DNA of 8,266 bases from a virus (lineage: Duplodnaviria > Heunggongvirae > Uroviricota > Caudoviricetes): the IMG/VR virus record IMGVR_UViG_2619619132_000010; one strand, written 5' to 3'. The position numbers and the translations under genes are program-made. Within the stretch, counting starts at the first letter, position 1, and the number at the start of each line of letters is the position of its first letter. Shown in pieces: positions 3,000-8,266 of the stretch. The notes under the pieces were generated by a model. That model ran no database searches, was not told the origin of the DNA, and worked only from the letters and a program-made list of their open reading frames with translations.

Positions 3000-3260
3000 T
3001 TACCGCACCTCCAGTCTCCATACCGCCTGACCAATCCGGCTGGCATAGGTATCTTTGGATACTGCTCCGTCTTTAGCCAGCTCCATAAGAATTTTGCGCA
3101 AATCTGCCGAACGCCATTCCTCATCAGGAAATTCCTTCTCCATTGCCAACCGCAGATTCCAGGTTGCTATCGTGAATGGATATTCCCCGCCGAGAGCTTT
3201 CTCTTGCAGGGCAGAACGGGAACGCATCACCTGCAAAACCTTCTCTTTTACATCCATCAT
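3000..3260 (-). CDS. Hypothetical 86-aa early accessory protein (Ea8.5 position)
   Basis: ORF MMDVKEKVLQVMRSRSALQEKALGGEYPFTIATWNLRL... with a strong SD AGGAGG 4 nt upstream of the ATG. The start overlaps the stop of the upstream 304-aa gene (ATGA). Confidence 0.6.
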   Translation of the reverse strand: MMDVKEKVLQVMRSRSALQEKALGGEYPFTIATWNLRLAMEKEFPDEEWRSADLRKILMELAKDGAVSKDTYASRIGQAVWRLEVR

Positions 3261-4171
3261 TTTGCCTCCTGCGGCGGTTCCGGTAGCGGCATCCAGTGAG
3301 TTACGTCATCCAAGATATTTCCTGATAAATATGTGAAAGCTCTATATTTTTTGTAATAAATTGGACTCATTACCCAGTTCCAATATGCTGCCACTATTTG
3401 ACCTTGACTAAATGCCAGTAACATTTTGGTGTCTTCCGGCATTCGCTCACTACAGCTTATCCAACCATCCGGAGTTACCGGAACTTGTGGAATGGCTGTC
3501 TGCTCTCGAACGTCATTAGGCGCTATAGGTTCTGCTGCCAACTGACTGGCATATTTGTTAATGGTAACGATAAGCTCTTGCTCAGCCTCATCCAGACAAT
3601 CACCGATACCTCGCCTGTCACCGTCAAAATCATCGAAATCGGCACGAATCCTGGCAACCTTCAGGATTGCGGACAACACCTCACTAGGAATTGCCGGATA
3701 GTTGGTTGACGTTTCCGCGATTTCCCGAAAATTATTGGTTGACGAATTCTTGTTTTCCCGAAAGTTTCCGGACTGAAGCATGGCGGCGCGGCAGGCGTTC
3801 CATATTTCGGCAGCAATATCGCGCTCGCTATCGGTTAATTTGTACGTTGAAACATAGCCAGAGAGCATTTCTACGTTTTCCGGAGTTGCTTCTTCAGGCA
3901 CTACCGGTGCTGGAGGGGCGGCGTAAATGCCCTCTATCACTAAATGTTTGCGCTCAAAATCATCTGGCTCTCGATGATATACGTAACTCCAATCACCAAG
4001 GTTATCATTGCGCCTGCAACGGAAACCTATCGGCTCTGCTTCCAGCGATGCCAGAGCAATTCGTGCCAGTTCTTCCGCTTCTTCTGCTGGCAGTACAACG
4101 TTGCTACCAGGTCCGTATGTTTCGCGCCACTGCCTGATTGTCAGCAGTCGCTCTTTGGTAATAGTGGTCAT
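3257..4171 (-). CDS. Phage accessory protein, 304 aa, with DUF551-like C-terminal domain and an internal 11-aa tandem repeat
   Basis: ATG at 4171 with AAGGA 7 nt upstream. The C-terminal region DGWISCSERMPEDT...WMPLPEPP resembles the DUF551 domain common in lambdoid Ea-region proteins. Internal repeat NFRENKNSSTN / NFREIAETSTN. Confidence 0.72.
   Translation of the reverse strand: MTTITKERLLTIRQWRETYGPGSNVVLPAEEAEELARIALASLEAEPIGFRCRRNDNLGDWSYVYHREPDDFERKHLVIEGIYAAPPAPVVPEEATPENVEMLSGYVSTYKLTDSERDIAAEIWNACRAAMLQSGNFRENKNSSTNNFREIAETSTNYPAIPSEVLSAILKVARIRADFDDFDGDRRGIGDCLDEAEQELIVTINKYASQLAAEPIAPNDVREQTAIPQVPVTPDGWISCSERMPEDTKMLLAFSQGQIVAAYWNWVMSPIYYKKYRAFTYLSGNILDDVTHWMPLPEPPQEAK
3702..3767. 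repeat. Imperfect 33-bp tandem duplication (2 units, about 25/33 identical) inside the 304-aa CDS
   Basis: TTGGTTGACG occurs at 3702-3711 and again at 3735-3744, and TTTCCCGAAA at 3721-3730 and 3754-3763, i.e. the same 33-bp spacing. In frame (11 codons per unit). Confidence 0.6.
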
Positions 4172-4446: not shown

Positions 4447-4929
4447 TCACTCTCCTTTGATGCGAATGCCAGCGGCGCGGGAATCATTCCATCGCTTTAC
4501 TTCTTCACGAATTACGTCAATGCATTCTTTCGAATCCATTAGGTAATCTTCATCAAAAAGACGTTCCTGTTCGTTTTCTATCGCAACAATGATTGCTTCA
4601 ACTAACTTTTGTGCCTGAGAATCACTTTCTAACTCTGCTATGCGCTTACTTCCATCCGAGATAACGCCCTCGTAATACTCACGCTGCTCGTTGAGTTTTG
4701 ATTTTGTCTCCTCAAGCTCAACTCTCAGCTTCCCAACAGTAAGCGCAATATCCTCGTTCTCTTGGTCGCGGCGTTTGATGTATTGCTGGTTTCTTTCCCG
4801 TTCATCCAGCAGTGCCAGCACAACCTGAGGTGTGACTTTCATACGAAATGCCAGCAATTTTTGAGGCGTTGCTACTGTTTCAATTGCTACTGCTGCCTCA
4901 CGCAGTACCTGATAGTCAATCTTGCTCAC
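4447..4929 (-). CDS. Ea22-like early accessory protein (about 160 aa from the GTG start)
   Basis: The segment [37 protein letters not shown]...[14 protein letters not shown]...AGIRIKGE is recalled as lambda Ea22-like. Most likely start is GTG at 4929 with AGGAGG 6 nt upstream (MSKIDYQ...). The track's alternative start is 4950 (also GTG). Confidence 0.68.
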
Positions 4930-5093
4930 TGGTTGCCTCCTTTGCGCCACATCGCATTCAGATATTTGTTTTTATTCACTGAAGGAAAAGAATTTCTCTT
5001 AAGCAATTCCTCTCTCGATGGCATTGGCTTTACGCGTTGGCGAATAATCATTTCTGCCGGAAGAATGCCGGGATTGTATGCAAGACCTCTCAT
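4926..5093 (-). CDS. Hypothetical 55-aa protein
   Basis: ATG at 5093 overlaps the stop of the upstream 96-aa gene (ATGA), and its own TGA overlaps the GTG start of the Ea22-like gene (GTGA). Translation [55 protein letters not shown]. Not in the track. Confidence 0.45.
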
Positions 5094-5390: not shown

Positions 5391-5687
5391 TCAGTCATTA
5401 CTGATAGCGCCATAACGAGAGCGATAATTACGCAGGCGCGGGTCGATATATTCAGGGAAGTGGGTATATGTGGCTTTGCGGAATGGTCGGATTGATGTCT
5501 GGTAAATTCGCTCGCGTTCTTCTTTCTCTGCAAGCCATATACAGTGGCGAAATTCCTTTTCCTCTTTCGTTTCCTGCGGTAGCGACATTATCCGATCGTA
5601 GTTTTTTCTGAATTTATCCAGCACCTCCGATACGGAATTGCCGGAACAGCGGCGCGCGTCATCCGCACCATACAGAGGCGCTGGCAT
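5391..5687 (-). CDS. Hypothetical 98-aa protein (possible Abc-like accessory protein by position)
   Basis: ATG at 5687 with AAGGA 7 nt upstream; translation MPAPLYGADDARRCSGNSVSEVLDKFRKNYDRIMSLPQETKEEKEF.... Lies 23 nt downstream of the ssb-like stop. Confidence 0.6.
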   Translation of the reverse strand: MPAPLYGADDARRCSGNSVSEVLDKFRKNYDRIMSLPQETKEEKEFRHCIWLAEKEERERIYQTSIRPFRKATYTHFPEYIDPRLRNYRSRYGAISND

Positions 5688-5710
5688 AATGGAATCCTTA
5701 TTTTGCTAAT

Positions 5711-6094
5711 CTAGAAGGGAATTGAATCGTCGTATTCAGGATGATTTTGATGATTGCTACTTTGTTGCTGTTGGCTGTTTCCTGAAGTTGCAAATCCAAT
5801 CTTTGCATTCAGTAATTCAAGAGTGATTGATTGACCATTTTGCCCCTGATAAACATCAACCATGATGTTTTCTCCGGTAATTTCTACAATGCCACCTTCA
5901 ACAAGAACACTACGGTAGTAATCCGCTTGCGCTCCCGGCTTGGCAAATACAACGGCGCTGTAGTTTGTCCATTCTTTCTTTTTTGTCTGGCGATCGTAAT
6001 ACTGAACGCCAGCACGGATGTTGAATCCGATATTTTCCCCGGCCTGAAACTCTCTTGCGGGCTTGTTTAGTCTTACAGTAATCGAATGTGCCAT
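5711..6094 (-). CDS. ssb: Short phage single-stranded DNA-binding protein (SSB-like, 127 aa)
   Basis: C-terminal acidic tail ...EYDDSIPF matches the SSB-family DDDIPF-type tail, preceded by a Q/S/N-rich linker and an N-terminal domain of OB-fold size. Start ATG overlaps the erf stop (TAATG). Confidence 0.72.
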   Translation of the reverse strand: MAHSITVRLNKPAREFQAGENIGFNIRAGVQYYDRQTKKKEWTNYSAVVFAKPGAQADYYRSVLVEGGIVEITGENIMVDVYQGQNGQSITLELLNAKIGFATSGNSQQQQSSNHQNHPEYDDSIPF

Positions 6095-6699
6095 TAAGCA
6101 GCAGCTCCTTCTAATTCGTCTCGTCTGATGTTGTAAACGTCCTGCGCTTTGTGCTGCTCAGGTGTGCCTTCGAGCATCTTCCACGCTTTGGCGAACGCCT
6201 GTTTAAGCTCTTCTACGGTGTTTTTCTGCATTGCTGCGTCAGTGAATGCTTTTAGAACCTGTTCAGGTGTAGGTGATGGTTTTGATTGCTTTGCTGCTGC
6301 GTTCTGCTGATGTTTATGCTCGTCTGTATCTGCATCTTTCGCATCATCAATGCCGAACAAACCATTGAGGCAATACTTGCGTGCATAAGAGCTTGTAGCT
6401 CCCGTAACTTGTGCAGAATCCATTCCTTTCTTGCTTTCTTCCTCTCGTGCAAGAGCGGTTGCCGTATGGCTGTTTTCGCCATCGGTAATAGTTGCCGTGG
6501 CTTTCACGTAATACCGATCACCAATCAACACAACTTCATCGCTGATTGATAAAAACAGACCATTCAGTAACGGCTTAACGCCTTCAAGAATATCTTCGCA
6601 GCTTCTGTATTTATATTTACCGAATGAGTTGTACTGATTCTTTGGCGCGTTCAGATTCTCCTGAATAGCTGCCAGTCTTGCGTAAAATTCTTTGCTCAT
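6094..6699 (-). CDS. erf: Erf-family single-strand annealing recombinase (P22 Erf-like, 201 aa)
   Basis: MSKEFYARLAAIQENLNAPKNQYNSFGKYKYRSCEDILEGVKPLLNGLFLSISDEVVLIGDRYYVKATATITDGENSH... recognised as close to phage P22 Erf. Start taken as ATG at 6699; the track's 6729 start is a TTG extension. Confidence 0.9.
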   Translation of the reverse strand: MSKEFYARLAAIQENLNAPKNQYNSFGKYKYRSCEDILEGVKPLLNGLFLSISDEVVLIGDRYYVKATATITDGENSHTATALAREEESKKGMDSAQVTGATSSYARKYCLNGLFGIDDAKDADTDEHKHQQNAAAKQSKPSPTPEQVLKAFTDAAMQKNTVEELKQAFAKAWKMLEGTPEQHKAQDVYNIRRDELEGAAA

Positions 6700-6709
6700 A
6701 TGATTGTTC

Positions 6710-6880
6710 TCAGAATGGACACGGCCCAAGGAAATAACGCTGATTTAATACTTCGACTCGGGACAAATTAAGGCATACCCGCATTCCTTCACGATCTCCA
6801 TTCTGGCGATACATTAACGCCTGCTGCGTGTACATGCGTCTCTGTAACTTGCTCTCCTTCACTGTGGTTGCAAGTGACAT
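6710..6880 (-). CDS. Hypothetical 56-aa ORF just upstream of erf (arf-position candidate); overlaps the next ORF in another frame
   Basis: ATG at 6880 preceded by GGAG with 6-nt spacing; translation MSLATTVKESKLQRRMYTQQALMYRQNGDREGMRVCLNLSRVEVLNQRYFLGPCPF; TGA at 6712-6710, 10 nt before the erf ATG. Not in the track. Confidence 0.4.
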   Translation of the reverse strand: MSLATTVKESKLQRRMYTQQALMYRQNGDREGMRVCLNLSRVEVLNQRYFLGPCPF

Positions 6881-6959
6881 GAATATCTCCTTCGTTACCG
6901 ATTAATTCTTTCATCTGACGAATGAATTCTTCGTCTGACCAGTTATCTGTAAAACTCAT
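6789..6959 (-). CDS. Hypothetical 56-aa acidic protein, translationally coupled to the kil-like gene
   Basis: ATG at 6959 overlaps the kil-like stop (ATGA); translation MSFTDNWSDEEFIRQMKELIGNEGDIHVTCNHSEGEQVTETHVHAAGVNVSPEWRS. The track shows it with a GTG-extended start at 6974. Confidence 0.45.
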   Translation of the reverse strand: MSFTDNWSDEEFIRQMKELIGNEGDIHVTCNHSEGEQVTETHVHAAGVNVSPEWRS

Positions 6960-7108
6960 TTCCTGCGATACCACGGAAGGTTGATAGCTGATTTCATCGC
7001 TTTATTTGCTTCAAGCCACATTTTTGAATCACCAATAAATCTGGCTATTACTGCTTTGTTCTGTGCAGCACGAAGCATCTGGTGATTGATGGCTATTTCA
7101 TTGCGCAT
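6956..7108 (-). CDS. kil: Kil-like small protein (50 aa), candidate host cell-division (FtsZ) inhibitor
   Basis: Translation MRNEIAINHQMLRAAQNKAVIARFIGDSKMWLEANKAMKSAINLPWYRRK. The ARFIGDSKMW segment resembles recalled lambda Kil. GAGG 7 nt upstream of the ATG; the start lies inside the 3' end of the cIII-like gene, as for lambda cIII/kil. Confidence 0.55.
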   Translation of the reverse strand: MRNEIAINHQMLRAAQNKAVIARFIGDSKMWLEANKAMKSAINLPWYRRK

Positions 7109-7224
7109 AATAAGACCTCAACTCTTTTCCATCCGTCACGTAATTTACGGGTGATTCGTTCAAGTAAAGATTCATTTAATTGGAAGGCACCCATGCGAGC
7201 GCCTCCCGCGATTGCGTAAATCAT
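7093..7224 (-). CDS. cIII: CIII-like protein (43 aa), candidate FtsH-inhibiting regulator
   Basis: Translation MIYAIAGGARMGAFQLNESLLERITRKLRDGWKRVEVLLCAMK. The core ESLLERITRKLRDGWKR matches the recalled lambda CIII central helix. AAGGA 7 nt upstream of the ATG. Not in the track. Confidence 0.7.
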   Translation of the reverse strand: MIYAIAGGARMGAFQLNESLLERITRKLRDGWKRVEVLLCAMK

Positions 7225-7248
7225 GGGTGGTTCCTTATGTTGGTTTTA

Positions 7249-8142
7249 TTAGTAGGTTATTTTTGTTGCGAATACTTCGCCTTTTACGATGGCTGTTATG
7301 ATATTTTTAGCAACATCTTCTGATGCACCAACCTTGATAAGGTCAGCAAGTATTTTGTTATTTACTTCTTTCCGGTGAGCTTTATCCTTTGCTCTACGCT
7401 CTTCTTCGTCCTTGATTCTTTTTTCTTCTGCTATTCTGGCTTGCTCTTTTGCTTCAGCTTCGCGCCGGATTCGTTCAGCCTCCTCCTGTGCTTTTCGGCG
7501 TTCTGCTTCAATTGCCGCCTGCTTTTCTCTTTCAGCTCGTTCTGCTGCCTCTTTTGCTTCGCGCTGTGCTCGTTGCTCGGCTTCAATGCGTTCACGCTCT
7601 GCACGTTCCGCTGCGGCCTTAGCTTCTGCTTCTCGCCTTGCTGCTGCTTCAATTTCGGCTTTTGCCTTTGCTTCGGCTTCTGCTCTGGCTTTCTCTTCAG
7701 CTTCTCTTTTTAAGCGTTCTTCATGCTCTCGCTTTTCCTGCTCCGCTTTGAGTCTTGCCTCTTCTCTTTTGCGGTCAAATTCGCGATCCATCAAAATCGC
7801 TATTTCATGGTCAGACTCAATTTGCTTTGCGAGAGCTTCAGCTGCTGCCTTAGCTTCTTCTTCGGCTTTAATCCGTGCCTGTTCCTCCTCATAATCAGTA
7901 AGAGGCTGGCGTGCCTTGGCTTTCAGTTCATCAAGGCGATCGCGCACTGTCTTGCGGTTGGCATCAATTAGCTTTGGAATTTCCTTCAGTTCAGCAACAA
8001 GGTCTTTGCCAAGACCATCGAGATATGTTTTCGTCTGCGCAACTTTATACGCCAGAGAAGCGATCTGAACCGCCCCGGGTTTCCTGGAGAGTGTTTTATC
8101 TGTGAACTCAGGCTGCCAGATCATCGTTTCCGATGGAAGCAT
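7249..8142 (-). CDS. Large charged low-complexity protein (E/A/K/R-rich predicted long helix), function unknown; 5' end uncertain
   Basis: Long minus-strand ORF with stop at 7251-7249. First in-frame ATGs are at 8142 and 8124, neither with a convincing SD. The central 500 nt or so encodes EAEAKAKAE / ERAERER-type repeats. Its 5' region overlaps the transposase C-terminus in another frame. Confidence 0.55.
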   Translation of the reverse strand: MLPSETMIWQPEFTDKTLSRKPGAVQIASLAYKVAQTKTYLDGLGKDLVAELKEIPKLIDANRKTVRDRLDELKAKARQPLTDYEEEQARIKAEEEAKAAAEALAKQIESDHEIAILMDREFDRKREEARLKAEQEKREHEERLKREAEEKARAEAEAKAKAEIEAAARREAEAKAAAERAERERIEAEQRAQREAKEAAERAEREKQAAIEAERRKAQEEAERIRREAEAKEQARIAEEKRIKDEEERRAKDKAHRKEVNNKILADLIKVGASEDVAKNIITAIVKGEVFATKITY

Positions 8143-8266
8143 AATAAGCTTTTTCTGCTTCTGCCGGAGGAGTATGGCCCAGCCTTTCCAGCAATCGTCG
8201 ATTGTTATACCAGTCCACCCACGTGAGTGTGGCCAGTTCCACTTCTGCACGGTTTTTCCAGCTCTT
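8108..8266 (-). mobile_element. C-terminal end of a DDE (rve-type) transposase, IS3-family-like; partial, runs off the window
   Basis: Minus-strand frame reads ...KSWKNRAEVELATLTWVDWYNNRRLLERLGHTPPAEAEKAYYASIGNDDLAA then TGA at 8110-8108. The W..WYN.RR...LG..P.E motif is typical of the C-terminal part of integrase-core transposases. Confidence 0.55.

Follow-up and report, generated by a model that had tools for sequence, protein, structure and literature searches.

Does the transposase-like reading frame at the upstream end of a lambdoid early-left operon mark the insertion of a mobile element into that operon, and if so, what has the event done to the phage genes around it? The question arises from a window of 8,266 nucleotides (the whole stretch of DNA analyzed here, IMG/VR record IMGVR_UViG_2619619132_000010), which corresponds exactly, in reverse complement, to the last 8266 bases of the draft contig JHDL01000020.1 (GCA_000601335.1). 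A preliminary description of this DNA had placed the C-terminus of a DDE transposase at the far end of the window, on the strand of the phage genes, and had proposed that an IS at this place could polarly block or re-drive expression of the left operon and may have truncated the gene for a charged protein next to it. The window begins precisely at the stop codon of ybhC, and at its other end the short-read assembly breaks off within the element that we identify below as IS629. This element, a repeat present in many copies, explains why the contig stops at 8266.

Given its gene content and integration site, the phage part of the window belongs to a lambdoid prophage that carries an early-left (pL) operon and is integrated beside ybhC, at attB-lambda. 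The ybhC gene occupies 1-1284 (a Pectinesterase Pfam match on the source-contig gene), and integration at attB-lambda is confirmed by an exact lambda att core, GCTTTTTTATACTAA, which stands at 1331-1345, with ybhC on one side and int on the other. All of the phage genes lie on the minus strand: int (1419-2489, with a Phage_integrase Pfam match), xis (2467-2685), genes for a DUF551 protein (3257-4171), an Ea22-like protein (4447-4950) and an Abc2-like anti-RecBCD protein (5391-5687, Anti-RecBCD_p2 Pfam match), erf (6094-6729, ERF Pfam match), a kil homologue (6956-7108) and a cIII homologue (7093-7224). The kil homologue was recognized from PF06301 (Lambda_Kil) on the source-contig gene and from PGAP annotation in homologues. 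Downstream of the insertion, the cIII homologue is the first gene left intact; it takes its name from the PGAP annotation of near-identical homologues, to which 7100-8066 matches at 99.5% identity; PF02061 is found on a 43-aa homologue in a related locus (L005). As the prophage is mosaic, the best coverage of the full window among 5426 complete E. coli genomes was only 79%.

The remainder of the window is a different kind of DNA. Positions 8066-8266 (minus strand) are identical at 201 of 201 bases to the 3' end of the 1310-bp element annotated 'IS3 family IS629' in LC567824.1, and they match, at 100% identity and E = 4e-100, copies annotated "IS3 family transposase" in thousands of records. 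The same sequence forms the last 201 bp of a full-length, 1310-bp IS629 copy with 25-bp terminal inverted repeats from E. coli UTME-12; that copy shares 99.7% identity with the element deposited for the Stx2a phage Stx2_499 (LC567824.1) as "insertion sequence: IS3 family IS629", with OrfA and OrfB. Based on these identities, the element at the window end is IS629, of the IS3 family. A match to its visible part is present in 4113 of the 5426 complete E. coli genomes, on chromosomes as well as plasmids and in unrelated contexts, with a median of 3 places per genome. IS629, whose isoforms are IS1203, IS1203v and IS3411 and whose hosts are E. coli and Shigella, is among the commonest IS elements in pathogenic E. 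coli. It is an IS3-family element with orfA and orfB and a -1 frameshift, and it moves by copy-out-paste-in transposition via a circular intermediate (bioRxiv 10.1101/2023.06.07.543989). A 'programmed frameshift' in orfA/orfB and an 'AL1L pseudoknot' are annotated in the full-length IS629 copies of UTME-12 and PK5074.

At this IS end, a terminal inverted repeat and the end of the transposase frame can both be placed. The right inverted repeat (IRR, TGAACCGCCCCGGGTTTCCTGGAGA on the plus strand) occupies 8066-8090 and matches the left inverted repeat (IRL, TGAACCGCCCCGGGAATCCTGGAGA) of the full-length UTME-12 copy at 23 of 25 positions. It begins with TG on the plus strand, so the element ends with CA in its own orientation, in keeping with TG...CA tips. 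The repeat had been predicted to lie within about 60 bp below 8108, and the tip at 8066 is indeed 42 bases below the OrfB stop codon. Translation of the minus strand from 8266 to 8108 gives KSWKNRAEVELATLTWVDWYNNRRLLERLGHTPPAEAEKAYYASIGNDDLAA followed by a TGA stop at 8108-8110; these are the last 52 codons and the stop of the IS629 OrfB (DDE/rve) transposase (8108-8266, minus strand). The preliminary description had read a DDE transposase C-terminus ending at 8108. Taken alone, the 52-aa piece stays below the Pfam thresholds (rve_3, 20.7 bits with a cut-off of 26.5; rve_2, 19.1 bits), and it matches PHROG transposase families at E = 1e-15 to 1e-39. The 107-aa OrfB fragment with the same junction on a sister contig, JHDN01000123.1, passes rve_3 (47.2 bits) and rve_2, and rve scores 94.9 bits on the complete OrfB of the copy that is identical to the window over its final 201 bp. 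The transposase-like frame could in principle be part of a phage gene that has nothing to do with an IS and carries no terminal inverted repeats, and the preliminary description had named this as the result that would speak against it. The complete identity to an annotated IS629 was found instead, the sequence recurs in unrelated contexts in most complete E. coli genomes, and IS-free prophages are without it. Nothing was found in its favor; this reading was rejected, and we give it next to no probability.

To the exact base, the insertion point follows from a comparison with IS-free homologous prophages, which the preliminary description had proposed. A megablast search with 7100-8266 as the query against complete E. 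coli genomes gave about 500 records in which at least 80% of the query is covered at one place. Among those listed, the IS-free records are about 99% identical to the window over 7100-8066, where the match stops. In the phage allele, as in EC17CM7 (L001), GAGAAGCGATC is followed by TCCTTTCTGCC, and in the window the same GAGAAGCGATC is followed by TGAACCGCCCC. The boundary between phage and IS DNA is accordingly that between 8065 and 8066, the T at 8066 being common to both by chance. The region earlier assigned to the IS, 8040-8266, holds for its IS part; its start at 8040 does not, as it takes in 26 bases of phage DNA.

The interrupted gene is intact in EC17CM7, where it is a 969-nt CDS for a 322-aa coiled-coil protein (L001 3150-4118) directly upstream of cIII-kil-erf, and the insertion point falls 152 nt into it. 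What the window retains is the 3' part (7249-8065, minus strand, placed by the EC17CM7 alignment and by PHROG 1376), from the third base of codon 51 through the stop codon, encoding residues 52-322. These 817 nt show 4 nt and 1 aa differences from the EC17CM7 gene. The coiled-coil gene is inactivated as such, IS629 having parted its first 152 nt from the remainder. The suggestion that the charged protein had been truncated was thus well founded: its first 51 codons have been removed from the part seen here.

The coiled-coil protein belongs to PHROG 1376, a family whose function is not known, and matches no Pfam family, even at E<=1; a suspected resemblance to DUF1351 was dropped on the same Pfam result. 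PGAP calls it "cell envelope biogenesis protein TolA" in some records and "coiled-coil domain-containing protein" or "hypothetical protein" elsewhere. E, A, R and K make up 81% of residues 111-280, and the TolA label, a low-complexity misnomer, most likely stems from this E/A/R/K-rich coiled-coil center. In other assemblies, N-terminal fragments of the protein (P0013, P0015, P0017) carry one foreign tail, VTNGAIV(L/I)HTQRLKSDPGGNLLS, at three positions. This tail has the look of a frame that runs on into the end of another mobile element, and the coiled-coil gene appears to have been hit repeatedly.

A long open reading frame crosses the junction. The preliminary description had noted that the transposase overlaps the charged-protein ORF, and the 333-aa ORF at 7249-8250, with a GTG start, does overlap the transposase end, in another frame. 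This ORF is the further extension of a 291-aa frame (7249-8124, minus strand), taken from the ORF list and verified in frame and sequence, whose ATG start at 8122-8124 lies inside the end of orfB. The predicted product would consist of 20 IS-encoded residues (MIWQPEFTDKTLSRKPGAVQ) and 271 retained phage residues, and the 291-aa chimeric gene has been called on three contigs. From its composition, the long "charged-protein ORF" is a read-through artifact in which 20 IS codons are fused in frame to the phage remainder. It exists solely because the frame that reads outward across the IRR is, by chance, open and joins what is left of the gene in phase. Both versions of the "charged protein" ORF, of 333 aa and 291 aa, should be annotated as an IS-disrupted pseudogene fragment and not as an intact gene.

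It might be asked whether the junction is an artifact of assembly, a chimeric contig end at which phage reads were joined to an IS repeat. Two observations would be in line with such a chimera: the window stops where a contig stops, within a repeat present in many copies, and the exact junction is present in none of the 5426 complete E. coli genomes. However, the identical junction is found on three contigs from two separate assemblies (JHDL01000020.1, JHDL01000007.1 and JHDN01000123.1), and the break falls exactly at the canonical TG...CA tip, as expected of transposition and not of misassembly. On these two grounds the chimera was rejected, and we consider it very improbable.

Two of the three contigs come from one assembly, and their relationship bears on the history of the insertion. 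JHDL01000007.1, from the same assembly as JHDL01000020.1, is identical to IMGVR_UViG_2619619132_000003. The first 2842 bases of the two contigs are identical, from the IS end to the abc2-like gene (5425-8266 of the window), and both contigs end at the same base inside IS629. Past these 2842 bp the two contigs are related as mosaics, in which patches show 92-98% identity and the Ea22 and DUF551 genes differ. On the simplest reading, two different resident prophages would have an IS-bearing module in common, in identical form, which recombination copied once the insertion had occurred. Alternatively, the assembler may have duplicated a repeat.

On which side of the phage regulatory genes does the element lie? 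The preliminary description had put it between pL/N and cIII-kil-erf, and synteny with the IS-free homologue supports that placement. In EC17CM7, the coiled-coil gene is preceded by four small genes, then by an N homologue about 1 kb away (PF25694, N_peptide, 54.1 bits), and then by a LexA-family repressor. The N homologue and the repressor are on one side of the insertion point and cIII-kil-erf on the other. In the source genome, the corresponding region would lie past the IS and the contig end. IS629 has the same orientation as the operon.

Taken together, we favor the simple insertion of a complete IS629 copy in the coiled-coil gene, with a probability of roughly 65%. Under this scenario, IS629, 1310 bp long when complete, would have transposed by the copy-out-paste-in route into a non-essential coiled-coil gene of the pL operon, and the copy here would presumably be complete. 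As the window stops at the contig end, the left end of the IS and the target-site duplication lie beyond this assembly. With one IS end visible, a simple insertion is not distinguishable from an IS-bounded deletion or a truncated IS. That the IS629 end is instead the joint of an IS-bounded deletion, inversion or recombination, or the end of a truncated remnant, is possible and, in our judgment, rather unlikely.

Several searches were directed at the other side of the element. For a simple insertion, the expected target-site duplication is GAT or GATC in the orientation of the gene. IS629 target-site duplications are 3-4 bp long and accompanied only 21 of the 47 copies in O157 genomes (PMC3271280), a proportion that leaves room for a rearrangement. 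An exact scan for the visible junction gave 0 matches in GTDB representative genomes and, in IMG/VR, returned only the second contig of the source genome, while the predicted second junction, with a gap of 0-6 nt, had 0 matches in IMG/VR and JGI metagenomes. Exact look-ups of the predicted N-terminal fusion proteins (52 aa and 67 aa; 3-bp or 4-bp duplication) found none in the protein collection, and a homology search for the N-terminal fusion product brought up only different truncated or fused versions of the coiled-coil gene. That the predicted fusion to an N-terminal fragment of the gene did not come to light favors a rearrangement or a remnant. However, these failed searches are weak evidence, as short ORFs at contig ends often go uncalled and the scanned DNA collections are without draft assemblies. 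Truncated IS629 copies do exist, for example in E2865. Against a truncated remnant here, at least 367 bp of the IS are intact at the junction in the sister assembly, where contig JHDN01000123.1 reaches 367 bp into the element and is identical to IS629 at 367 of 367 bases.

Other prophages with IS629 in the same part of the operon speak to the same choice. UTME-12 and PK5074 carry the same element as the window, in the same orientation and in the same operon segment. The tip of the UTME-12 copy (L002 3901-5210) is 66 bp further into the coiled-coil gene, whereas the PK5074 copy (L016 3748-5057) lies about 130 bp upstream of its start codon. As both positions differ from that in the window, these were independent events. 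Neither copy has matching flanking duplications. The far flank of the UTME-12 copy consists of unrelated phage DNA with ClpP and Arc genes, which points to an IS-mediated rearrangement there. The non-matching flanks of the two copies, at or near the coiled-coil gene, show that IS-bounded rearrangements are common at this locus, and they count in favor of a rearrangement in the window as well. If that were the case, the 5' part of the gene, and possibly N and pL, would no longer be adjacent, the early-left genes would be cut off from pL and the prophage would be defective. We retain the simple insertion as the preferred reading in what follows.

An insertion of this kind has close precedents. 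In O157 genomes, 62% of IS629 copies lie in prophages or prophage-like elements (PMC3271280), and in a phage collection we found IS629-like matches in 176 phage records, most of them from Stx phages. AF017626.1, the 2662-bp int region of Escherichia phage 21, also contains, under an 'int' annotation, a complete 1310-bp element that is IS629-like (99.7% identical). The copy in the window resembles known IS629 in its visible 201 bp, in the 25-bp inverted repeat starting TGAACCGCCCCGGG, in the OrfB C-terminus and in its lambdoid-prophage habitat. Its visible part shows no difference from them; what sets it apart is the insertion site at nt 152 of the gene. The Stx2a phage Stx2_499 of EHEC is likewise a lambdoid prophage in which IS629 disrupts an accessory or early gene. 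There, however, a regulatory gene is 'interrupted by IS629' and both ends are documented with a 4-bp target-site duplication, CCAG, whereas here another gene is affected and one end is visible.

How would the insertion affect the genes downstream? A search of both strands over 7000-8266 found no sigma-70-like promoter, and thus none pointing outward from the IS end. Terminator-like hairpins in 7000-8266 number 3, with 2.2 expected, which is chance level; the IS part has none on the operon strand. RNA polymerase that has started at pL and been modified by N passes terminators, among them those responsible for the polarity of IS insertions, and classical polar IS insertions are relieved by lambda N antitermination, as in gal::IS read from pL. 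The window would resemble gal::IS in having an IS inside a unit predicted to be read by N-modified polymerase, with the difference that here nutL and N themselves fall outside the sequence at hand. Provided that both remain linked upstream, expression of cIII-kil-erf would probably persist on induction, as we infer from the read-through by N-modified polymerase in textbook lambda. Two further readings may be named. In the first, the 2842-bp IS module would stand in two mosaic prophages of one genome, having been copied by homologous recombination after the insertion. In the second, the ATG at 8124, which overlaps the end of orfB, would give rise to an N-terminally replaced 291-aa protein, with IS-derived transcription into cIII-kil-erf in the repressed lysogen. 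Taken jointly, we regard these readings as improbable.

The presence of IS629 in a gene of a lambdoid prophage is an ordinary and well-documented kind of event. The exact insertion site is new, as it is absent from the 5426 complete genomes, and this is expected for an IS with low target specificity. Accordingly, the importance of the finding extends little beyond annotation. Situated in an accessory gene between N and cIII, the insertion could reduce the expression of cIII, kil and erf, and by itself it would be unlikely to abolish lytic growth of the prophage. For the element, the locus adds one more case of the documented preference of IS629 for prophage DNA.
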